Assembly (NCBI GenBank): GCA_038046485.1
Contig: JBBSWA010000047.1
Span: 1 to 32,000 of the forward strand
DNA from: Nanobdellota archaeon
GTDB taxonomy: Archaea; Nanobdellota; Nanobdellia; Woesearchaeales; SM23-78
Length of the DNA: 32,000 nt
Direction of reading: 5' to 3'
Both the position numbers and the translations under genes were made by a program. The number at the start of each line of letters is the position of its first letter. The first letter of the stretch is position 1. Below the pieces are notes generated by a model. It made no database searches, had not been told where the DNA came from, and worked only from the letters and a program-made list of their open reading frames with translations. Shown here piece after piece: positions 777 through 32,000 of this stretch.

Positions 777-1423
777 CTTAACTCCAAGATCTTCTCTGCG
801 TTTAGTTCTTCCAAAGAATGAACGACGAGATCAGCTCCTTTGAAATCATCGGCTTTGTGAAACTGTGTCACCTTACCGATAAATTTCATGCCCAATTCCT
901 TTGCTTGTAAAATACCATGCACTGAATCATCGATAAAAATACACTCAGATGGCAAGACTCCTAACTTATCCGACTCCTTTAGCAGTATATCTGCACTATC
1001 CTTATGACCATTTGCATCCTCAAGAGCAGTCATTATCGGGAACTTTTCGAGCAATTCTAGATCTCTTAATCGCTTCACCAAAAGCTCTTTGGGGTACAAT
1101 GAAGCGATCCCAGTCTTTATTTTATGCTGCTGTAAATCTGCAATTAATTCTCTTACCCCTTTGTTGGGCACCATATTTTTTCCTAGTAAGTGATCGACTT
1201 CATCCCTTGTACTCTTTGAAAAATCCTCACAATCGATATTAAGATTGTACTTATTATTTATCTTATCCAACTGATCTTTCAACGAATGCCCTAGTAAAGG
1301 TTTTATTTCTTCGATGGATAGATGAATATTATATTTACTTAAGTACTGATTTCGGGCCTCCCAAATGTAGGGGGTTGTATCTATGATAACTCCATTGAAA
1401 TCAAAAATAACCGCTTTGATCAC
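773..1423 (-). CDS. HAD-superfamily phosphatase (YihX-like, motif I D-x-N)
   Basis: N-terminus MIKAVIFDFNGVI is HAD motif I and ECIFIDDS is motif IV. It has 4-nt overlaps with both neighbours. Confidence 0.8.
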   Translation of the reverse strand: MIKAVIFDFNGVIIDTTPYIWEARNQYLSKYNIHLSIEEIKPLLGHSLKDQLDKINNKYNLNIDCEDFSKSTRDEVDHLLGKNMVPNKGVRELIADLQQHKIKTGIASLYPKELLVKRLRDLELLEKFPIMTALEDANGHKDSADILLKESDKLGVLPSECIFIDDSVHGILQAKELGMKFIGKVTQFHKADDFKGADLVVHSLEELNAEKILELR

Positions 1424-19247: not shown

Positions 19248-19275
19248 GCCTCCGGCGAGAGTTGCACTCAGGGCC
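19248..19275 (-). pseudogene. orphan 3' end (T-arm plus acceptor strand) of a tRNA
   Basis: The minus strand reads GGCCCTGAGTGCAACTCTCGCCGGAGGC, 23/28 identical to positions 45-72 of the tRNA-Thr at 20296-20367. It starts immediately after the LAGLIDADG stop codon. Confidence 0.65.
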
Positions 19276-20268
19276 TTATGTATCTTTGAGTTTACTTAAG
19301 TGGCGCTGATTACTAAACCCGACGATCTCTATGAATCTTTTACAGTTCTGAACGCCATTTATCTGGATTTTCCTGAAATCTGACGTTATGGTTGCATTTA
19401 TTTCAAAGCCTCTTAAAATGTCGTAAATTTGCGCCATAAGATGCTTGCTAACCATCTGTAGACCTATTCTTATGTAAGGCACTTTAAAGGTGGCTCTTTT
19501 ATCCCAGTATACGGAGCCATCTGTGTCAAATATACCTCGAATGCAACGTTTCAGCAGGAGAGAATCTGCTTTTAAGATCTCATCTGGAATAACAACAGAA
19601 TAGGCTTTTTTACCTGCTGGAAACTTGAACCTTTTCGTCAATAGATAGTGAAACTCTTTAGAATGAATGGTTAGCCTCAAAGCGTTCTCTTTGCTCGTCA
19701 AAATCGGATTTGACCTTGGACTGATGCCCTTAATGTAAGACATTAAGGTTGTGTAATATTCCTTGTCCAGCTGAGCGTGCCCTGTAAATTGGATTGTATA
19801 AGCGCCTCCGTACTTGTTTGTAAAGCCATCTCCTATGAAAGCTCCGATTAACTCGCATAGCCCAAGTGTTAAAGGCATATCAAACTTGAAATGATACTTC
19901 AGCACTTTTGCTGATTGCGCTCCTAACTTTCTTCCTTTTCGGAAGATGTCTGGATGCTTTCTAGATGTAGAAACACCTCCTTTTCTTCGACCCCAATCTT
20001 TCTCTTTTAGAACGATTTGCTCGAAGAAAAAGTTCTTATCTTGATCTTTTACACAGGCTATGAAGTTTAAGAACATCGAATAAGGAATGGACCGCGTGGC
20101 TGATCGAAAAGTGTCTAATCTCGATTTATAGAGTTTAAAATGTTCTTGTACACTTTTCCAAGAACCGAATCTCGTTTTCAGAGCAGCGAAGAATTGATTT
20201 CTGATTTTATCGTTTTTAAAGAACACTCTCTTTGAAAGCAACTCAGGGGAAGTTTTTTTATTTTTCAT
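19276..20268 (-). CDS. double-motif LAGLIDADG homing-endonuclease-like protein
   Basis: Motif 1 is LIGAFIGDG and motif 2 is CIRGIFDTDGSV, about 100 aa apart. There is an N-terminal extension of about 130 aa. Confidence 0.8.
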   Translation of the reverse strand: MKNKKTSPELLSKRVFFKNDKIRNQFFAALKTRFGSWKSVQEHFKLYKSRLDTFRSATRSIPYSMFLNFIACVKDQDKNFFFEQIVLKEKDWGRRKGGVSTSRKHPDIFRKGRKLGAQSAKVLKYHFKFDMPLTLGLCELIGAFIGDGFTNKYGGAYTIQFTGHAQLDKEYYTTLMSYIKGISPRSNPILTSKENALRLTIHSKEFHYLLTKRFKFPAGKKAYSVVIPDEILKADSLLLKRCIRGIFDTDGSVYWDKRATFKVPYIRIGLQMVSKHLMAQIYDILRGFEINATITSDFRKIQINGVQNCKRFIEIVGFSNQRHLSKLKDT

Positions 20269-20295
20269 AAAAGACCTCTTTGGAAAAATAAAAAA

Positions 20296-20367
20296 GCCCC
20301 CGACGAGAGTTGCACTCGCGACCTGCGCTTTACGAGAGCGCCGCTATAGCTACTAAGCCACGGGGGC
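20296..20367 (-). tRNA. tRNA-Thr: tRNA-Thr (anticodon CGU), no encoded CCA
   Basis: 72-nt cloverleaf folded by hand: acceptor GCCCCCG/CGGGGGC, D stem GCT/AGC, anticodon stem GCGCT/AGCGC with loop CTCGTAA, T stem GCGAG/CTCGT. A TATA box lies 25 nt upstream and a T-run downstream. The T-loop (TGCAACT) and D-loop (no GG) are atypical. Confidence 0.75.
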
Positions 20368-20392
20368 ATATGTGCATATGAACATTGATTCC

Positions 20393-20400
20393 TATATAAA
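20393..20400 (-). promoter_or_regulatory. TATA box for tRNA-Thr
   Basis: The minus strand reads AAAATTTATATAGG, with 25 nt between the box and the tRNA 5' end. Confidence 0.55.
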
Positions 20401-20407
20401 TTTTCCT

Positions 20408-20428
20408 TAGCTACTATGCTACGGAGGC
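20408..20428 (-). pseudogene. orphan 5' end (acceptor strand plus D-arm start) of a tRNA
   Basis: The minus strand reads GCCTCCGTAGCATAGTAGCTA, 18/21 identical to positions 1-21 of the adjacent tRNA-Thr. GCCTCCG is exactly complementary to CGGAGGC in the 3' fragment at 19248-19254. Confidence 0.65.
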
Positions 20429-20440
20429 ATGGATGAGGAG

Positions 20441-22213: not shown

Positions 22214-23151
22214 ATGGACCTATTTGGAAAAAGTCGAATTTCTGAACTTGAAAGAACCACTACTCGATTAGAACGTGAATTAGCTACTGCTCGAAGAGAG
22301 AATACCACACTTTCTCAAGATCAAGCACGAATAGCACAAGAACTAAGAAACGCAACAACCCTAGAAAGAGGAACTTAAGAGGAACTTCTCAAGAACTTAC
22401 TCGCTTACAAGGAGAATTCGGAAAGATTAACGGAGAACTAGGAGAACTCAGAGGAAGACTCATTGTTGTACCTCCTGTTGCGATTACCAAAGACGAATTG
22501 GTTGCTTATGCAACAAACTCCGCCGATCGAGGATATCAAACCCTGTTCAATCAGTTCCGAGATCGAGCTGCAGAAAGAGGAGCTCAAATATATCCTGAAC
22601 CTGGGAGATGTCATGAAGGAAAATTCCGCATCTACCTCACACCCGATAAAGAACCGGATGGATTTGAAGCCTACATTGAAACCCAAGGGCTGGAATCCAG
22701 TTACGATTTGCAAGAACGCAGACATGATCTAGTACTAAAAGGAACTCTTAAAGGAAGATATATTTCTAATAACCATAAAGATTCCCCCACTCCCGAAATG
22801 CGCGCCCGTGGCCAATATCATGGTGGTCCTTGCTGGGAATACGGCCTTGGAAGAACTAACTATCCAAAAATCTGGCAAGACCAACTGGAAACAGACTTAG
22901 GCGCATTGTTAAAATCATTCAGCCATGGAGTTGCTGCCCAACACCTTGCCAGTGAACCTACTGAAAAAGCTGGACCTCTACGAGAACAACGCGTTGGTGT
23001 TATCTTTGGCCTCATGGAACAACAAGAGCTCGCTCAAGACCCAGTCTTACTCGCACGTATCCGAGAAGCCTTAACAAAAGGCGATGGAATGTATGCCGCA
23101 ACGATTAAACCACACTTGGAAAGACTCGGGATAGAAGTACCTACATCTTAA
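22214..23151 (+). pseudogene. coiled-coil-headed hypothetical protein split by an 11-bp tandem duplication
   Basis: An ATG ORF at 22214-22378 stops inside the first repeat copy. The downstream ORF (to 23151) has no ATG or GTG and is open back to 22279. Deleting one 11-mer fuses them into one 309-codon frame. Confidence 0.6.
22367..22388 (+). repeat. tandem 11-mer agaggaactta/agaggaacttc
   Basis: This is a direct read of the sequence, with 10/11 identity between the copies. Confidence 0.95.
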
Positions 23152-24499
23152 ATGGCATCTTGCCGCCAAACTTTTGCATCATCTTTTGCATGTCCTTTTC
23201 TGAGCCGCCCTTGAACATCTTGACCATCTTCTTGGATTGCTTGTATTGCTTGAGAAGCGCGCGAATCTCACTCGATGAGCAACCAGAACCCTTTGCGATT
23301 CTGTCCACACGAGAGCCATCCATATCCTCCGGGTTTTCCAACTCTTCCTTGGTGCATGAATCCAGGATGAACTTCCACTTCGTAAGCTTTTCTTCTTGCA
23401 CTTCCAACATTTCTTTTGGTAGGTGAACTTGACTCATGCCAGGAATCATCTCCATGATCTTTGTCAAAGGACCCATCTTTCTTACTGCTTGCATCTGCTC
23501 GTACAAGTCCAACAAGCTAAAATCACCCTTGAGGAACTTATTGCCTAGATCTTGCGCTTCCTCCTCAGAAATCGCGCCTTTGGCCTTTTCTAAAAGAGCT
23601 TCTAAATCACCCATACCTAAAAGACGGCCGACGAAACCTTCTGGACGGAATTCTTCCAGATCATCTGCTTTTTCCCCCAGACCAATGAACTTAACGGGAG
23701 CGCCTGTGATGGCAGCAGCTGCTAATGCACCGCCTCCTTTCGCTGTACCATCTAACTTAGTAATCACAATGCCTGTTACGCCACAGGTTTCGTGAAAGGT
23801 TTGGGCTTGCTTTTCGGCCGCTTGACCGAGGTCTGCGCCCATGACTAAAAGGATTTCATCTGCTTTGACGGCCTTGTGGATGCTGTTGAGCTCTGTGATG
23901 AGTTCATCTGATAAGGCGTCTCGACCGGCCGTATCCACGATGACCAAGTCGTATTTGTTGAGTTCTGGTTCGAACTTCTTGAAAATCTTAGCTGGATCTT
24001 TTGATTTCTTATCCCCCATGAAATCCACGCCGACTTTCTTTGCGAGTTGTTCCAATTGATCAAAAGCCGCTGGACGCCACGTGTCGGTTGTCATGACGGC
24101 TACCTTGAGACCTCGTTTTTTGTAATAATGAGCGAGCTTTCCTGCAGTGGTGGTTTTTCCGTTTCCAAAGAGACCCACGAGCATGAGCTTGAAGGGCTTT
24201 TTCTTCATCTCGATCTTAGAACTAGAGCCGCCTCCCCCTAAGAACTTAGTGAGCTCTTCATAGAGAACCTGGATGAGGTATTCTTTCTTTGAAAGGGTTT
24301 TAGGAGCTTCTTCTTTTAGAACGCGCTCCTTGATTTTATTGGAAAGATCTAAAACAAGCTTGACGTTGACATCGGATTGAAGCAAGGAACGCTGGACATC
24401 TTTGACGAGTTCGTTTACGAGCTTTTCATCCACGAAGACAGCTGAAGCGATCTTCTTTAACGTATTTTTTAAGGAGTCGGAGAGCTTGTCAAGGACCAT
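23141..24499 (-). CDS. srp54: signal recognition particle protein SRP54 (archaeal type)
   Basis: N domain MVLDKLSDSLKNTLKKI...SDVNVKLV, G domain GLFGNGKTTT, DTAGR and TKLDGTAKGGGAL, and a Met-rich M domain. The ATG at 24499 is 21 nt after the TATA box; the track start at 24508 is a TTG. Confidence 0.95.
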   Translation of the reverse strand: MVLDKLSDSLKNTLKKIASAVFVDEKLVNELVKDVQRSLLQSDVNVKLVLDLSNKIKERVLKEEAPKTLSKKEYLIQVLYEELTKFLGGGGSSSKIEMKKKPFKLMLVGLFGNGKTTTAGKLAHYYKKRGLKVAVMTTDTWRPAAFDQLEQLAKKVGVDFMGDKKSKDPAKIFKKFEPELNKYDLVIVDTAGRDALSDELITELNSIHKAVKADEILLVMGADLGQAAEKQAQTFHETCGVTGIVITKLDGTAKGGGALAAAAITGAPVKFIGLGEKADDLEEFRPEGFVGRLLGMGDLEALLEKAKGAISEEEAQDLGNKFLKGDFSLLDLYEQMQAVRKMGPLTKIMEMIPGMSQVHLPKEMLEVQEEKLTKWKFILDSCTKEELENPEDMDGSRVDRIAKGSGCSSSEIRALLKQYKQSKKMVKMFKGGSEKDMQKMMQKFGGKMPFKM

Positions 24500-24520
24500 G
24501 AAAAGCAAAAAAGAATGAAA

Positions 24521-25283: not shown

Positions 25284-25385
25284 ACCCCTTATAACCTCAT
25301 TTAGTTTATATATTTTACTACTTATTAGTTAATATTTAAACATCATATTATTTTCTATATAGTCAACTATTTACAGCCGACAACC

Positions 25386-25393
25386 ATATAAAT
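25386..25393 (+). promoter_or_regulatory. TATA box for the tRNA-Gly gene
   Basis: atataaat lies 24 nt before the tRNA 5' end at 25418. Confidence 0.55.
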
Positions 25394-25417
25394 CAAATCC
25401 GAGCACAAAACAATCAT

Positions 25418-25582
25418 GCACCGGTCGTCTAATGGTTAGGAGTGCTTAAGCAAGCGCTTAAGAACTAACAAATGCGAGCCTTCCAAGCTTGCGATCCGGG
25501 ACGTTCAAAATCTACGGGTTTTGACGCGGAGATTCGAAAGTGAAGGGAACGACCCCTTCCTGAACACATCCCGGCCGGTGCA
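25418..25582 (+). tRNA. tRNA-Gly: tRNA-Gly (anticodon UCC) gene with a D-arm BHB intron and an unexplained 69-nt T-loop insertion
   Basis: Elements present: acceptor GCACCGG/CCGGTGC plus discriminator A; D-loop AATGGTTA; anticodon stem CGAGC/GCTTG with loop CTTCCAA; T stem CCGGG (25496-25500)/CCCGG (25570-25574). A TATA box lies upstream and TTTTTT immediately downstream. Whether the T-loop insertion is removed is unknown. Confidence 0.65.
25441..25471 (+). other. 31-nt BHB-type tRNA intron at a non-canonical position (23/24, D stem)
   Basis: The central 4-bp helix GTTA (25435-38)/TAAC (25466-69) is flanked by 3-nt bulges GGA (25439-41) and AAA (25470-72) on opposite strands. The inner 10-bp helix (25442-51/25456-65) has one G-A mismatch and loop AAGC. 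Cutting after the second bulge nucleotide yields a D stem GTCT/GGAT and a canonical-length 5' half. Confidence 0.7.
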
Positions 25583-26213
25583 TTTTTTCTTTACAATAAT
25601 CTTCGTATTTTTTCTTTTTTATGGAATGATCAAATCCAATTTTTTTGAATTCTAAAAAAGACTCAGAAGGTATCCGAATCGTATAACATATTTTATATTT
25701 TAACTTCGTAGGTAGTCGATTATACAAAGTCGTCCTAATCCCTTCTAAGGCTAACATCTTTTGTATCGTTAAAACTGCTTTCTTATTTGTATTATAACAC
25801 ACAATGCAACTCTTATAAACACTTCCTTCATCATCAAAAATGGCTCTTAACCATATTTTTCTAAACCGTTCATTTTCAACGATCTCTTGAGGTATATCCC
25901 AATTGCTCCCATCAATATATTTCAACATTTTTAGCATGCAGTAAAGGGGCTTATTTCTTGCTTGAATTCTTCTTTTTTTATTATCTCGATATACGTATGT
26001 TTTTGGAAATAAACTCTTAATTGCTAGAGTCATTTTATCCAAAAGCTCTGGGCAGTAATTTGTATATTCAATTACATGTCTATAGAAAGGTTCAGTCATT
26101 CTAGAGTTTTTAATAGCCGAAGGGCTTCTTTTTTCCTTTTTCATGTACATATTTCCATCGCCGCACACATGTGCATGGATATGTACCAAGTTTTCATTCA
26201 ATTCTATCTGCAT
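25512..26213 (-). CDS. double-motif LAGLIDADG homing-endonuclease-like protein
   Basis: Motif 1 is IHAHVCGDGNM and motif 2 is WLRAIFDDEGSV. The ATG at 26213 is 20 nt after tttttataa; the track start at 26225 is a TTG. The last 24 codons or so run antisense through the tRNA-Gly 3' end and T-loop insertion. Confidence 0.75.
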   Translation of the reverse strand: MQIELNENLVHIHAHVCGDGNMYMKKEKRSPSAIKNSRMTEPFYRHVIEYTNYCPELLDKMTLAIKSLFPKTYVYRDNKKRRIQARNKPLYCMLKMLKYIDGSNWDIPQEIVENERFRKIWLRAIFDDEGSVYKSCIVCYNTNKKAVLTIQKMLALEGIRTTLYNRLPTKLKYKICYTIRIPSESFLEFKKIGFDHSIKKKKYEDYCKEKMHRPGCVQEGVVPFTFESPRQNP

Positions 26214-26346
26214 TCTGCCGCTCAAATAAATTGTTATAAAAATGACTTACCTTAACTTATATACCCCACCATAGAATGTCCAGTGGACTAAGTTACACCC
26301 CTTTTCTTCCGCAAAGTATTAAAGCCTTCTAAACCCACATGAGAGC

Positions 26347-28112: not shown

Positions 28113-28716
28113 TTAAAGCCATTATCTTTGACTTTGCAGGCGTTCTTTCTAACACGGGAAGCCTTCATCTTACCATTGTTGATTACGCTAAAAAGCACGG
28201 AAAAGATCCTGAAACAGCCTACCAAGTTTTGCAAGAAAATTGGAAAAAAGCCAAGATAAATCAGATCAGCTCCGAAACTTTCTGGAAGAACCTTGCCCAA
28301 CACCTCCAAGCTGCACCCAATGAACTACGTGAACACTGCATGAACTATTTCGGATTCCGCGACGAAACCCTAGAACTCGCAAAAAAACTAAAAACGCACT
28401 ACAAACTAGGCCTACTATCCAACCAAATCGAGGATTGGCTAGAAGAAGTCATCAAAAAACACCATTTAAATGAAGTGTTTGATGTTATTGTTACTTCTTA
28501 TAACAGCCGCATTGCAAAGCCAGACCCAGCCATTTTCAAAGAAATGGTAAAAAAACTAGATACTAATCCGGAAGAGTGTATATATATATATATATATATA
28601 TTGACGACGAAGAGAAAAATATCTCTCCAGCCCAACATCTTGGAATGAAAACGATCCTGTTCAAAAATATAGGACAAGTGAAAAAAAAACTAATCTCATA
28701 TGGAGTAGAAAGTTAA
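28109..28716 (+). pseudogene. HAD-superfamily phosphatase frameshifted at an internal (TA)11 tract
   Basis: MIKAIIFDFAGVL is motif I. After the TA tract the annotated frame dies at 28648. The other frame reads IDDEEKNISPAQHLGMKTILFKN (motif IV and beyond) to a TAA at 28714-28716. Confidence 0.75.
28579..28600 (+). repeat. (TA)11 dinucleotide microsatellite inside a coding region
   Basis: This is a direct read of the sequence: 22 nt of alternating TA. Confidence 0.95.
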
Positions 28717-31700
28717 ACCTTCAAACTGGTCACTTTAGAAACAGCGTGTACATCCATACTGATGCCGAACAAGGTATCTGATTCTGAGATGATGGCATCG
28801 TTGTGACTAATGACTATATATTGGGCCTTGGTTGAATAGGCCTTCAAGAGCTTGCCTAGCTTTTCACTATTTCTCTTATCTAAGGCTGCATCGACTTCGT
28901 CCATGATGTAGAAGGGTGCCGGGTCGTGCTCTTGCACTGCGAACAAGAAGGCCAAGGCAGTCATTGTTTTTTCTCCACCGGATAGACCCCGGATGTCCAT
29001 GAATTTACTTCCTGATAAGCGAACCTTCATGGTAAGACCACCATTGAATGGGTCATGCTTATCCTCCAACTCAATGAAGGCTTCCCCTTTAGTCGATAGA
29101 AGGCCGAATATTTTTTGGAAATTACTATTCACAACATCAAAGGTCTTCATGAACAAGTCCTTCTTCTTGCTATCGATCTTATTGATCATGACCATCACAT
29201 CTTCGCGCTCCTTCCCTAGCTTTTCTTTCTTACCTAACAACTCTCCATACTCTTTTTCTACACTTTCGTAAATCTCTAAGGCACGCATGTTCACAGCACC
29301 CATTTCGCCCACCATTTTTTCGAACTGCTTGATCTCAACTAAAATTTCTTCCTCAGGCTTACCCTTGAACAATTGAACACTTCCATACTGCTTGAATTCT
29401 TCCTCTAAACCAGCGAACTCGGCCTTCACCCGTGCTGCTTCCAATGAAAAGCCGATTTTCTTCTTATCCACTTCACGCATGCCTAAATCTTTCTTATTTA
29501 CGTCCTGCTCCAGTTTAGAAACTTCATCAGAAAGCTTGGTACGCTGCGTAAACAAGGCCTTGAACTGCTCGTAAAACTTCTTTTCTGACTCTTCTTTTGC
29601 TATCAAGTCTTTGCGCTGCTGCTTTACTAAATCCATAAGCGCTTTTTGTTCCTTTTCGAAATCACCCTTCTCCTTTTCCTGCTGCTTTAAGATGCGCTCG
29701 GCCTTTTCTGTTTCCGGCTGCAAAATATTTTGAATCTCAGAATCCATCCCTTTCATCTCACCCTGCAATTCCTGAATTTCCAAACGAAGCTCATTCTTTT
29801 TCTGCTCGAAGGTGTTTAACTCAGCTAAGAGACGAGGATTACGAAGCTGGGCAATGCGATCCCGTAACTTTTGCTTATCGGTTTTTACTTCAGCCAAGCG
29901 GAGGTTTTTTTCACGGATTACTTCTTGCTCTTTTTCAAGCCTTTTTTCCACGTCCTTTAATATGGCCTCCACCTTGGCCTTTTCTTCCTTACTTGCCCCT
30001 AGGTCTGCTGAATCTAAATGTAACGTCTTTTCTAACTTGATCACATCCCCTTCTACATTAGCCTTACGCTCTCTTAATGTTTCAATTTCCTTACCCGCCT
30101 CGTGCTTATCCTTTTCCAGACGCTCGGCTAAGCCTTCTAAATCACTTACTTCTGCTTCCATCTTTACTAGCTGCTCCATAAGCTCTTTTTCCTGGAAGCC
30201 TCCGGCACGCTCTTGATGCCTGAACCCTCCTTGCATGGAACCGGAAACATCGAGCAAGTCCCCGGACTTAGTTACCATCCTTGCTTTTCCAATCCCTACC
30301 TGTCTTGCTGTGGGTATATCCTCCACTACCAAGGTATTTGAGAATACGTACTGGAAAACTTTTTGATACTTCTTATCAAAACTAACCAAGTCCAATGCTA
30401 AACCATGGATTCCAGCACCTTTCAATGCTGGGTTTTCTGTACGCATAGAAGGATTCAACTTGTTCAGCGGCAAAAAGGTAGCCACGCCTAACTTATTATC
30501 TCGCAAGTACTTGATGCATTTCTCAGCGACTTCATCGCTGTCCACCACAATGCTCTTCAATCGGTTTCCGGCAGCAATTTCAAGTGCCAGTGCATACTCG
30601 GATTTCACATTTCCTAACTCAGAAACCAAGCCATGAATGCCCTTCCACTTGGTCTTTAACTCTAAAATCTTTTGTGCTGCGCCCCGTGCACCTTCCCTGA
30701 AAACAGCTGAACGCGCCCGAACCTTAGCCAACTCTTCTTGACGAGAAAACAATTTTTCTCGTGCCGTTCCTAACTCTAAACTCACTTCAGACTCGGCATT
30801 TAATAAACCTGAAAGACGATCGGATGTTTCTTTTAAGAGCTGTTTTTTCTTCTTCAACTCTTCCAAACCCACCTTGTTCTCCTTTGAAACCGCCATGATC
30901 TTTGAGACTTTATCATCAATGGACTGCAACAAAAGCTCACACTTATCTTTTTCCCTTAACAAACCCTGCTGATCCTCTCGCAACTTAGAAATCTCTTCTT
31001 GCACTTTTTCTGCTTCTTTATCCAATGACTCAATTTTCTTATCCACATCCTGTGCATCTTCTAACTTGTTCTTGGCCTTGAACTCATCAATTCGCTTATC
31101 TAACCCCTGAATGGAAAGCTCATGATCCTTGGTCTTATCTTCCAAGGCTTTCTTATTTTTCTTGATGGCTTCAATCTTATCCTTCAACTCTTTATGACTC
31201 TTGACCAATTCACTTCGACGCTCTTCTAACTTTTTCAATTCTGACTTTAATGCTTCTGTACGCTGCTCATTTACCGTAAGATCAACCTTGAACTTCTCTA
31301 CTTCTTTATGGATGGTGAGCTGTTCTTTTTCCCCCTTACGCTCTACTTCCTGATTGATTTGCTCGATTTCCTTCTTTTTATCTGCAATCTTTTGCTTGAG
31401 CGCATTGATCTCTTCTTGCACTTTTTGGATACTCTCGTCGTGAATGGAAAGCTGCTTATCTAAACTGTCGCGTTCTTTGATCTTCTTTTCCATCTTGTTG
31501 TTTAATAGAGTTGCCCGATTGCGTTTGATCTTTTCATCCAAGCCCTTAAACTTCATGGCTTCATCTCGCTCTTTTTTTAATTCTTTGAGATAGGTTTTAC
31601 GCTCCGTAAGAATGATCTCGGCTTCGTTCAATTTTTCTTCTACACGCTCGAGCTCCCGAATCGCCTTATCCTTTTTCCCTTCATAAATGGAAATGCCGGC

Positions 31701-32000
31701 AATTTCTTCTACAATCCCCCTTCGCTCTAATGAGGACATCTCCACGAGATGGACAATGTCTCCTTGCAAAATGATGTTGTACCCGTCGGGGTTTACCCTT
31801 GCTTTACTTAACAAGTCCAAAACTTGCTGACGCGTATGCACTTTTCCATTGATTCTGTACGTGCTGTTTCCCGCCTGGGTAACGGTACGCTTGATCTCAA
31901 TTTCGAGTGAGTCTGGATCAAACACTTTTCCTTGATTATCCAGTATGATCGCTACTTCCGCTGAACTTGCCGGCTCCCTTGACTTCCCCCCATTGTAGAT
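28713..32000 (-). CDS. smc: SMC chromosome-segregation ATPase, N-terminus beyond the window edge
   Basis: Long coiled coils, hinge GIHGLVSELG...ATFLPLNKL, signature LSGGEKTMTALAF and Walker B FYIMDEVDAALD. The frame stays open to base 32000 (IYNGGKSREPASSAEVAIILDN), so the Walker A head lies outside the window. Confidence 0.95.
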   Translation of the reverse strand: MYNGGKSREPASSAEVAIILDNQGKVFDPDSLEIEIKRTVTQAGNSTYRINGKVHTRQQVLDLLSKARVNPDGYNIILQGDIVHLVEMSSLERRGIVEEIAGISIYEGKKDKAIRELERVEEKLNEAEIILTERKTYLKELKKERDEAMKFKGLDEKIKRNRATLLNNKMEKKIKERDSLDKQLSIHDESIQKVQEEINALKQKIADKKKEIEQINQEVERKGEKEQLTIHKEVEKFKVDLTVNEQRTEALKSELKKLEERRSELVKSHKELKDKIEAIKKNKKALEDKTKDHELSIQGLDKRIDEFKAKNKLEDAQDVDKKIESLDKEAEKVQEEISKLREDQQGLLREKDKCELLLQSIDDKVSKIMAVSKENKVGLEELKKKKQLLKETSDRLSGLLNAESEVSLELGTAREKLFSRQEELAKVRARSAVFREGARGAAQKILELKTKWKGIHGLVSELGNVKSEYALALEIAAGNRLKSIVVDSDEVAEKCIKYLRDNKLGVATFLPLNKLNPSMRTENPALKGAGIHGLALDLVSFDKKYQKVFQYVFSNTLVVEDIPTARQVGIGKARMVTKSGDLLDVSGSMQGGFRHQERAGGFQEKELMEQLVKMEAEVSDLEGLAERLEKDKHEAGKEIETLRERKANVEGDVIKLEKTLHLDSADLGASKEEKAKVEAILKDVEKRLEKEQEVIREKNLRLAEVKTDKQKLRDRIAQLRNPRLLAELNTFEQKKNELRLEIQELQGEMKGMDSEIQNILQPETEKAERILKQQEKEKGDFEKEQKALMDLVKQQRKDLIAKEESEKKFYEQFKALFTQRTKLSDEVSKLEQDVNKKDLGMREVDKKKIGFSLEAARVKAEFAGLEEEFKQYGSVQLFKGKPEEEILVEIKQFEKMVGEMGAVNMRALEIYESVEKEYGELLGKKEKLGKEREDVMVMINKIDSKKKDLFMKTFDVVNSNFQKIFGLLSTKGEAFIELEDKHDPFNGGLTMKVRLSGSKFMDIRGLSGGEKTMTALAFLFAVQEHDPAPFYIMDEVDAALDKRNSEKLGKLLKAYSTKAQYIVISHNDAIISESDTLFGISMDVHAVSKVTSLKV

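Follow-up and report, generated by a model that had tools for sequence, protein, structure and literature searches.

The window analysed here, the first 32,000 nucleotides (nt) of contig JBBSWA010000047.1 from a Nanobdellota archaeon, holds at 25,418 to 25,582 a tRNA-Gly(UCC) gene divided into four exons. The comparisons reported below make it likely that this is a resident, functional gene with its own TATA box and three bulge-helix-bulge (BHB) introns, and that the LAGLIDADG gene adjoining its 3' end belongs to a free-standing cassette encoding an I-DmoI-like endonuclease, which is predicted to spread by homing. An earlier account made from the letters of the window, here called the sequence-only reading, had recognized one of these introns, in the D arm, and had treated the 69 nt found in the T loop as a single structured insertion.

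The tRNA-Gly(UCC) gene and its introns

In the archaeal BHB motif, a 4-bp helix separates two 3-nt bulges on opposite strands, and the splice sites lie within the bulges. Our in-house scorer evaluates this central helix together with its flanking helices, setting the four exon bases before the last two bases of the 5' exon against the four intron bases before the last two bases of the intron; in validation, it ranked the canonical 37/38 intron of a homologous gene first (locus L006; the loci compared with the window carry L numbers). Because the scan found one BHB in the T loop and a second after removal of the first, the 69 nt between the T-stem strands are read as two introns, at 53/54 and 58/59, around a 5-nt exon. 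The gene then has the following parts.

25386..25393, plus strand: TATA box of tRNA-Gly(UCC), ATATAAAT, about 28 nt upstream of +1
25418..25440, plus strand: exon 1, positions 1-23 (5' strands of acceptor and D stem, the D loop, and the two initial bases of the D-stem 3' strand)
25441..25471, plus strand: intron 1, 31 nt, D arm 23/24; BHB with GTTA (25435-38) paired to TAAC (25466-69)
25472..25500, plus strand: exon 2 (remainder of the D stem, anticodon arm with TCC as the anticodon at 25483-85, variable loop, 5' strand of the T stem)
25501..25532, plus strand: intron 2, 32 nt, T loop 53/54; TCCG (25495-98) paired to CGGA (25528-31)
25533..25537, plus strand: exon 3, the 5-nt micro-exon TTCGA, T-loop positions 54-58 (orthologs read TTCGAAT)
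25538..25567, plus strand: intron 3, 30 nt, T loop 58/59; (G)TTC paired to GAAC (25562-65), inner helix AG(T)GAAGGG/CCCTTCCT
25568..25582, plus strand: exon 4 (AT at T-loop positions 59-60, 3' strands of T stem and acceptor, discriminator A)
25583..25588, plus strand: T6 run, likely the tRNA terminator, contributed by the inserted cassette

The limits of exon 1 come from in-silico splicing with ARAGORN and agree with the intronless ortholog in L109. Intron 2 is the highest-scoring BHB of the whole pre-tRNA, with bulges GG-A and GA-T, an 8-bp inner helix that has a single bulged T (CGT(T)CAAAA/TTTTGACG) and a 3-bp outer helix; its position and helix are the same in L006 and L025, and the 58/59 position of intron 3 is also used in L004 and L114. 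Joined together, the micro-exon and the AT at 25568-69 form the T loop TTCGAAT, and removal of all three introns yields a 72-nt tRNA-Gly(UCC) that ARAGORN accepts. When any intron is left in, or when splicing runs through a GTTCA/TGAAC stem, the result is either an ARAGORN failure or a T loop of 10 nt.

Exhaustive enumeration of the 69 nt returned just two two-intron solutions, and among shuffled versions only 2 of 2,000 (0.1%) could be resolved into two introns. The second solution, TT-CACAT, is ruled out by the TTCGAAT of the orthologs. All eight splits that would make the 69 nt a single intron were scored and none gives a BHB or a TTC loop, in agreement with the sequence-only reading, which had found no workable way to split a 7-nt T loop. 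A giant intron enclosing the LAGLIDADG gene, with the tRNA's 3' half lying past that open reading frame (ORF), was rejected because no CCCGG-CCGGTGCA occurs downstream of 26225.

The sequence facts and coordinates of that earlier account are all present as given, including the acceptor stem (GCACCGG at 25418-24 with CCGGTGC at 25575-81), discriminator A25582, the T6 run at 25583-88 and the T stem (CCGGG at 25496-500 with CCCGG at 25570-74) around the 69 nt. Its proposal that tRNA-Gly(UCC) forms a single transcription unit and has a non-canonical BHB intron in the D arm is likewise supported, the insertion at 25441-71 forming all four pairs of the GTTA/TAAC central helix. Its view that the 69 nt contain no BHB did not survive the exhaustive scan. 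That they form one three-way-junction insertion in the T loop, retained or removed by some route other than BHB splicing, now has next to no probability in our estimate. Both hairpins of the proposed junction exist, and GTTCA/TGAAC can be paired on paper, but the hairpins are the inner helices of introns 2 and 3, and the outer stem is missing from the minimum free energy (MFE) and centroid folds. The unconstrained MFE fold (-65.9 kcal/mol, z = -4.8) instead contains the TCCG/CGGA helix of intron 2 along with both inner hairpins. In homologs the introns are separate, one or two per T loop, at 53/54, 58/59 or 59/60; their sequences are unrelated and no junction is conserved. The TTCAAAA that had been noted as resembling a T loop falls within intron 2. 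Splicing through the outer stem, which would take out 25509-25567, leaves the 10-nt loop ACGTTCAAAT, for which ARAGORN forces a broken T stem, and is not a productive route.

All three introns would be removed by the archaeal splicing endonuclease and a ligase. The central helix of intron 3, GTTC/GAAC, has four of four pairs once intron 2 is out and three of four, a relaxed motif, in the primary transcript; the 53/54 intron would probably be removed first, or at least its removal would complete the helix for the 58/59 intron. The first T-loop intron starts with ACGTTCAAAATC (25503-25510), a near copy of the T-loop region GGGTTCGAATCC. The GTTC in this near copy can pair with the GAAC at 25562-65 that intron 3 requires as a partner, giving the mis-spliced 10-nt T loop, so that splicing order may matter.

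The gene sits in a piece of archaeal chromosome in which a Pfam scan of ten window ORFs identified SRP54, SMC, a PIG-L deacetylase and a GT4 glycosyltransferase; EndA did not turn up in these ten. Homologs of the PIG-L protein next door and of the LAGLIDADG proteins carry the source labels Woesearchaeota or Nanoarchaeota, and contigs from a Hainich groundwater metagenome carry an identical copy of the LAGLIDADG gene. The host is a Woesearchaeota/Nanoarchaeota archaeon of the DPANN group.

Relatives of the locus were found through the PIG-L protein and share the order SRP54, a protein of 242-248 aa, tRNA-Gly and PIG-L, with PIG-L identities to the window of 82% in L101, 80% in L103 and 63% in L109/L110. 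At the same syntenic site and behind the same promoter, L109/L110 have an intronless tRNA-Gly(UCC) gene (Rfam tRNA, 67.7 bits). The spliced window product differs from it at 3 of 72 bases, and because it is so close the exon junctions assigned in the window are taken to be right. L101 has only the D-arm intron, homologous to intron 1 (z = 9.1), and an intact T loop; L103 lacks the D-arm intron and has one T-loop intron, at 59/60; neither carries an endonuclease gene. The TATA box ATATAAAT is invariant in L101, L103 and L109, and the block CGACAACCATATAAATCAAA at the TATA region is invariant or nearly so in the same three. In more distant Woesearchaeota, PIG-L synteny yielded no additional endonuclease-less tRNA-Gly loci, the synteny being lost in L105-L108.

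Among ten spliced or intronless homologs, 98.6% of cloverleaf cells hold standard pairs, and compensatory changes occur at 11 of the 21 pairs. The BHB helices change together with the exons: the 53/54 helix is TCCG/CGGA in the window, L006 and L025 and CCTG/CAGG in L010, and the D-arm helix is GTTA/TAAC in the window and GCTA/TAGC in L004. The motif, the restored cloverleaf and the compensatory helix changes in homologs together place the introns of the window gene, as predicted, in the BHB class, and on comparative grounds the gene is functional and under selection, not a pseudogene.

This bears on the alternative of a tRNA pseudogene in decay, damaged by insertions and with BHB-like pairings that are fortuitous, which the sequence-only reading had kept in view and which we regard as very unlikely. 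The gene is called neither by ARAGORN nor by Rfam at the gathering threshold, both of which report the tRNA-Thr(CGU) at 20295-20367 as the sole tRNA of the window, and Rfam at a permissive threshold found nothing in 25350-25650 except a chance match to an sRNA family; the central helix of intron 3 is also imperfect in the primary transcript. A pseudogene is nevertheless at odds with a conserved promoter, with exons that are intact and compensated, with a position where relatives have tRNA-Gly(UCC), with BHB helices that covary with exon changes, with the 0.1% shuffle null and with eight further loci that share its design. A lost promoter, broken stems or unselected exons were not found. Three introns are the maximum given for an archaeal tRNA gene (PMC4033280, PMC3239211). 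Beside another member of the endonuclease family, a tRNA-Gly(UCC) at L010 3635-3789 (minus strand; identical in L022) needs four BHB introns, at 22/23, 37/38, 53/54 and 59/60, to give a 72-nt tRNA.

The endonuclease cassette at the tRNA 3' end

Right behind the discriminator base, the window carries an insertion of about 715 bp whose sole gene is the LAGLIDADG ORF, oriented toward the tRNA gene.

25512..26213, minus strand: LAGLIDADG endonuclease ORF, 233 aa; the last 24 or so codons run antisense to intron 3 and the 3' part of the tRNA
25583..26297, no strand assigned: inserted endonuclease cassette, about 715 bp, right boundary uncertain by about 6-8 nt
26257..26263, minus strand: putative TATA box TATATAA of the endonuclease gene, read from the sequence, with promoter function presumed
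26277..26286, minus strand: conserved motif CCACTGGACA, which reads TGTCCAGTGG on the plus strand and lies 13 nt upstream of that TATA box

The minus-strand ORF (25512-26213, or to 26225) does run antisense over the tRNA 3' end, as first noticed, and its product matches Pfam LAGLIDADG_3 (PF14528; E = 1.9e-9, 38.1 bits against a cutoff of 22.5). It has the two motifs HVCGDGNMY (D19) and FDDEGSVY (E129), and both acidic residues are invariant in 7 homologs. Since a sequence search of the PDB with the family profile gave no meaningful relative, we turned to a structure model. The AlphaFold2 (AF2) model (predicted local distance difference test, pLDDT, 84.3; predicted template modeling score, pTM, 0.78), in which residues 216-233 are disordered, has the two-domain alpha-beta-beta-alpha-beta-beta-alpha fold. 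I-DmoI is its best Foldseek match (E = 2e-9, template modeling score [TM] 0.56-0.73), and the top 22 PDB matches are all I-DmoI, followed by intein endonucleases. The protein thus models as an I-DmoI-like monomeric LAGLIDADG homing endonuclease. I-DmoI is a monomeric, two-motif LAGLIDADG endonuclease encoded inside a BHB intron of a Desulfurococcus rRNA gene. The window protein, in addition to having I-DmoI as its best structural match, has one Asp and one Glu in its two motifs, whereas its gene is free-standing, outside the tRNA and on the opposite strand, and identity in the structural alignment is 17-21%. The ORF lies inside neither an intron nor an intein: its start, its promoter and about 630 of its 702 bp are outside the tRNA gene.

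The limits of the cassette were set by alignment with the empty sites of L101, L103 and L109; native flank CCCCTTTTCTTCCGCAAAGTATTAAAG resumes at 26298, and in place of the T6 run the empty sites read TCC(C/T)TTTCTTCC. The cassette begins 15 nt past the last T-loop intron. The site is therefore polymorphic for presence and absence, occupied in the window and empty within collinear flanks in three syntenic relatives (L101, L103 and L109/L110), whose flank continues right after the terminal GCA. An integrase-mediated tRNA-gene element does not fit the window, where the 715-bp insertion contains no integrase gene and no significant att-type repeat was found.

Homologs of the 233-aa protein are rare, forming only 7 protein clusters among 5.8 billion sequences, and their genes represent nine lineages (the window, L004, L005, L006/L009, L010/L022, L023, L024, L025 and L114). 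In all nine the gene is convergent to, and overlaps, the 3' end of a tRNA-Gly gene, even where the tRNA is tRNA-Gly(GCC), as in L023, or the flanks are unrelated, as in L006. The sequence-only reading had named homologs free of tRNA contact as the observation that would overturn its targeting idea; none was found among the nine. The C-terminal tails of the homologs read through the tRNA in three different frames and are conserved no more than the tRNA itself imposes, so the antisense overlap is an incidental by-product of abutment. A role of the overlap for the protein was not borne out, given these three frames and a tail that is disordered in the model. The stop codon lies inside the tRNA gene simply because the coding end abuts it.

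Between the window and L004 (homolog P0002) the endonucleases are 62% identical and the neighboring PIG-L and GT4 proteins just 38%, a disparity which suggests that the endonuclease gene spread horizontally. Overall, the pattern is that of a free-standing homing endonuclease, for which we infer cleavage and mobility. Such an enzyme would cut endonuclease-less tRNA-Gly alleles in or near the conserved T-arm/acceptor DNA, and repair of the double-strand break would copy the cassette, together with the nearest tRNA sequence and its T-loop introns, into the recipient. The endonuclease gene, being so tightly linked to the 3' end of the tRNA, would stay inside the co-conversion tract.

Some of these genes have traces of tRNA on the far side as well. 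Past the endonuclease promoter in L114 (300-480, minus strand) comes a displaced T arm reading CTGGG-TTCGAA[~75-nt insert]T-CCCAG and then part of an acceptor strand; together they make up a second fragment of a tRNA 3' end, which has a 59/60-type insert of its own (local alignment, p ~0.01). On the far side of the L023 cassette (1130-1175, minus strand) is GGTCGGCGCA, a 3' end of tRNA-Gly(UCC) type, and then a duplicate of about 30 nt of the endonuclease 3' end (TTCTTAAAAATTCAGCATATTT), while the cassette itself abuts an intronless tRNA-Gly(GCC). The arrangement suggests that in L023 the cassette moved from one tRNA-Gly gene to another. As a general feature, a displaced tRNA 3' fragment past the cassette was rejected, being significant in L114 only and visible in L023.

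The exact motif CACTGGACA stands upstream of 10 of 84 non-redundant LAGLIDADG loci, against 2 matches in 688 kb elsewhere, and the spacing between TATA box and motif seen in the window recurs at other loci. Sites include window 26277-26286, L004 5063-5071, L005 215-223 and L023 1166-1174, and the motif also lies upstream of the matching gene in L020, L028, L043, L048, L050, L064 and L067. The usual arrangement is CACTGGACA, then 12-13 nt, then a TATA box (often ...GTGAGATATATAAA), ahead of free-standing LAGLIDADG_3 genes that are just 25-36% identical to each other; in L112 the motif also precedes a Zn-ribbon ORF. It could be the site of a regulator or autorepressor, or a remnant of a target.

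A conserved promoter-upstream motif common to distant relatives is one of the features that would suit a different role, in which the LAGLIDADG gene has been domesticated by the host, for example to regulate through DNA binding or to assist tRNA-Gly expression or processing, and is stably linked to the tRNA gene. LAGLIDADG-derived regulators exist, WhiA is among the Foldseek fold matches, all homologs are full-length ORFs with invariant motifs, and the divergence between L004 and L005 equals that of a housekeeping neighbor. A stable host function fits poorly with the absence of the gene from the three closest syntenic relatives, with its restriction to 7 protein clusters in so large a search, with conservation far above that of the flanks between the window and L004, and with retention of both catalytic acidic residues, and we consider domestication unlikely. 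The equal divergence of the endonuclease and its DHH neighbor in L004 and L005 indicates that the resident endonuclease gene is under purifying selection and not decaying.

Scans with the family profile added 84 further non-redundant loci, mostly in DPANN and some in Omnitrophota, whose proteins are 25-36% identical. ARAGORN places a tRNA within 300 nt at 42 of these 84, where the background in these same loci, 0.019 tRNA per kb, predicts about one. Disrupted tRNAs missed by ARAGORN were sought with a simple, ad hoc acceptor/T-stem scanner, which found them beside further family members. In L028, L031, L034, L043, L044, L048, L058, L064 and L071 the ORF again stops within a convergent tRNA other than tRNA-Gly, or at the 3' end of one. 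The tight, site-specific linkage of I-DmoI-like cassettes to tRNA 3' ends in DPANN is real and recurrent, and we found no description of tRNA-linked free-standing LAGLIDADG genes in DPANN in the searchable literature. In another set of loci (L011-L013, L038, L040, L046, L047, L060, L061, L079 and L097), several of them in Omnitrophota bacteria, the gene lies 190-260 nt downstream of tRNA-Leu, Ser, Pro or Met genes in which ARAGORN reports "introns" of 220-640 nt; these may be group I introns, with an endonuclease gene embedded in them or lying close by.

The second LAGLIDADG gene of the window belongs to a different and larger family, with at least 129 clusters across DPANN; its 330-aa protein shares only the second motif with the 233-aa protein, and the two were rejected as close paralogs. 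Its locus (19248-20430, minus strand) comprises a 5' tRNA fragment GCCTCCGTAGCATAGTAGCTAAGG (20430-20407), a TATA box, an intact tRNA-Thr(CGU) (20367-20295), the LAGLIDADG gene (20268-19276) and a 3' T-arm/acceptor fragment (about 19270-19248) whose acceptor strand pairs 7/7 with the 5' fragment. The layout of Zn-ribbon ORF, tRNA-Thr(CGU), endonuclease and 3' T-arm/acceptor fragment is found in the window, in L111 (1380-2540) and in L112 (1285-2510), with protein identities of 57% and 42% in the two relatives. Both the tRNA-Thr(CGU) and the displaced 3' fragments at these loci (window 20295-20367 and 19248-19270; L111, L112) have T loops reading TGCAA(A/C)T or TGCGATT, with G at position 55, where U is near-universal, and a D loop AGTAGCTA without the GG pair. 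Because abutment recurs throughout the 233-aa family and this tRNA-Thr layout recurs as well, the proposal that tRNA genes are the targets of the LAGLIDADG genes, made first in the sequence-only reading, is well supported comparatively; the empty sites, the tRNA enrichment near distant relatives and the nine-lineage abutment all speak for it.

Inteins containing LAGLIDADG_3 interrupt SRP54 (1044 aa) and SMC (about 1695 aa) in close relatives (L103 1-2612 and 6283-8573; L105 3273-3639), while the window SRP54 (455 aa; 23141-24508) and SMC (1070-aa ORF; 28713-31925) are intein-free, so the same neighborhood is polymorphic for several homing elements.

T-loop introns as possible partners of the endonuclease

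One extension of the homing reading is collaborative homing, in which the enzyme targets uninterrupted T-arm DNA and the T-loop BHB introns confer immunity and spread with the cassette by co-conversion. In its general form, free-standing LAGLIDADG endonucleases of DPANN would each target specific tRNA T-arm/acceptor DNA and park at the 3' end, with T-loop introns protecting the carrier and co-converting. We regard the extension as possible but rather doubtful, and hold the general form just as tentatively, although some co-mobility of intron and endonuclease is plausible from the comparisons that follow.

Within 100 bp, the window differs from L101 by exactly three insertions, the two T-loop introns and the cassette, while the more distant D-arm intron is common to both. 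When convergent LAGLIDADG/tRNA pairs with the ORF stop in or at the tRNA 3' end were counted, a T-loop intron was present in 13 of 19 abutting lineages, compared with 0 of 8 other tRNAs at the same loci (Fisher p = 0.0014). The tandem tRNAs of L034 and L048 repeat the contrast on a small scale, with a 59/60 intron in the abutted tRNA and none in the next. These counts are small, come from the ad hoc scanner and involve lineages that are not phylogenetically independent. Intron 3 resembles the 58/59 introns of the endonuclease-bearing L114 (z = 4.35, 0 of 500 shuffles) and L004, a likeness that is partly forced by exon pairing. The displaced tRNA 3' fragments past the cassettes of L114 and L023 are expected if the transferred unit includes the 3' part of the tRNA. 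There is also a precedent in F-CphI and its psbA intron (PMC6083498), and in the window, too, the gene beside the endonuclease has conserved sequence broken by an intron. On the other side, 53/54 and 59/60 are major intron sites in DPANN without any reported endonuclease (PMC3239211), and the T loop is intron-free despite an abutting endonuclease in L028, L044, L053 and L058, as well as in two tRNA-Gly loci discussed next.

Several observations weigh against the overall reading of a resident three-intron gene joined by a homing cassette, or against parts of it. L023 and L024 have an endonuclease beside an intact T loop and L103 has a T-loop intron with no endonuclease, from which it follows that the introns are neither necessary nor sufficient companions of the enzyme; within tRNA-Gly alone, the association falls to 7 of 9 against 1 of 3 (p = 0.24). 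Past the window cassette there is no significant copy of the tRNA 3' end as a direct repeat (p = 0.98). Between L004 and L005, endonuclease and neighboring DHH protein are both 78% identical. The competing GTTC at 25503-06 could capture GAAC and lead to a dead-end product, and intron 3 has just three of its four central pairs in the primary transcript. With these points counted, the resident gene with three BHB introns and an adjoining homing cassette is still the reading we consider likely.

Related systems and implications

A tRNA with two T-loop introns is of an already known type, and three introns equal the published maximum. In the pre-tRNA-Pro(GGG) of ARMAN-2 (Micrarchaeota), the T loop holds one intron at 53/54 and another at 59/60 (Fujishima et al. 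2011, PMC3239211); ARMAN-2's own splicing endonuclease cut a 59/60 intron in vitro (PMC3239211). ARMAN-2 and the window are both DPANN cases of two BHB introns in one T loop with one at 53/54, but the window gene is a tRNA-Gly(UCC) from a Woesearchaeota-type lineage, has its second intron at 58/59, a 5-nt micro-exon and a third intron in the D arm, and is joined by an endonuclease gene, whereas none has been reported adjacent to the ARMAN-2 gene. The multi-intron tRNA genes of the Thermoproteales (Sugahara et al. 2007/2008; review PMC4033280) are similar in having up to three BHB introns per gene, non-canonical positions, and quick gain and loss between relatives. They differ in belonging to another phylum and in a proposed spread by intron transposition with no homing endonuclease.

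Free-standing endonucleases offer a second set of parallels. Phage T4 SegB is a free-standing homing endonuclease in a tRNA gene cluster (PMC2988022, Table 1). Like the window gene it is inserted beside or between tRNA genes, and it targets a tRNA region and is inherited by co-conversion; SegB, however, is a phage-borne GIY-YIG enzyme with an intergenic target, whereas the window gene is a LAGLIDADG gene, lies in an archaeal chromosome and abuts the tRNA 3' end precisely. Collaborative homing is known from F-CphI and the psbA group I intron of cyanophage S-PM2 (PMC6083498), and T4 mobE performs trans-homing of I-TevIII (PMC2790892). In both cases, as in the window, a free-standing endonuclease gene lies beside a gene with an ORF-less intron in conserved sequence; their introns are group I and their cleavage was shown experimentally, whereas those of the window are predicted protein-spliced BHB introns. 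A third parallel is the Caldiarchaeum subterraneum tRNA gene disrupted by a 1.8-kb insertion (Sugahara et al. 2012, PMC3293823, as summarized in PMC4033280). According to that summary, it too is a natural-population polymorphism in which a mobile insertion at a tRNA gene left a tRNA fragment; the insertion described there carries a putative recombinase, unlike the window cassette, which has only the LAGLIDADG gene, no integrase and no significant repeat.

What these comparisons offer is one chromosomal site with a natural series of alleles, running from an intronless tRNA gene through genes with the D-arm intron only or a T-loop intron only to one with three introns and a cassette. We know of no mobility machinery tied to the BHB introns of tRNA genes, which are too small to encode an endonuclease. 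Published proposals for the spread of tRNA introns hold that introns transpose, or that they protect against elements that integrate (PMC4033280). With an endonuclease family found at tRNA 3' ends in every case, there is a concrete system in which ideas on how tRNA introns arise and turn over can be tested. Should the enzyme cut intact T-arm DNA, homing endonucleases would have tRNA introns as partners in addition to group I introns and inteins, and if the collaborative reading is true, it would provide a DNA-level mechanism for the gain and quick turnover of non-canonical archaeal tRNA introns.

There are practical consequences as well. ARAGORN found only 2 of the 9 tRNA-Gly genes at loci of the endonuclease family, and DPANN tRNA sets look incomplete because standard tRNA finders miss multi-intron genes of this kind. 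New meganuclease specificities could also come from these compact, I-DmoI-like enzymes that have tRNA genes as targets. For the archaea themselves, the pairing of endonuclease and tRNA recurs for many tRNA genes across this group, and it may help explain how introns have spread among them.

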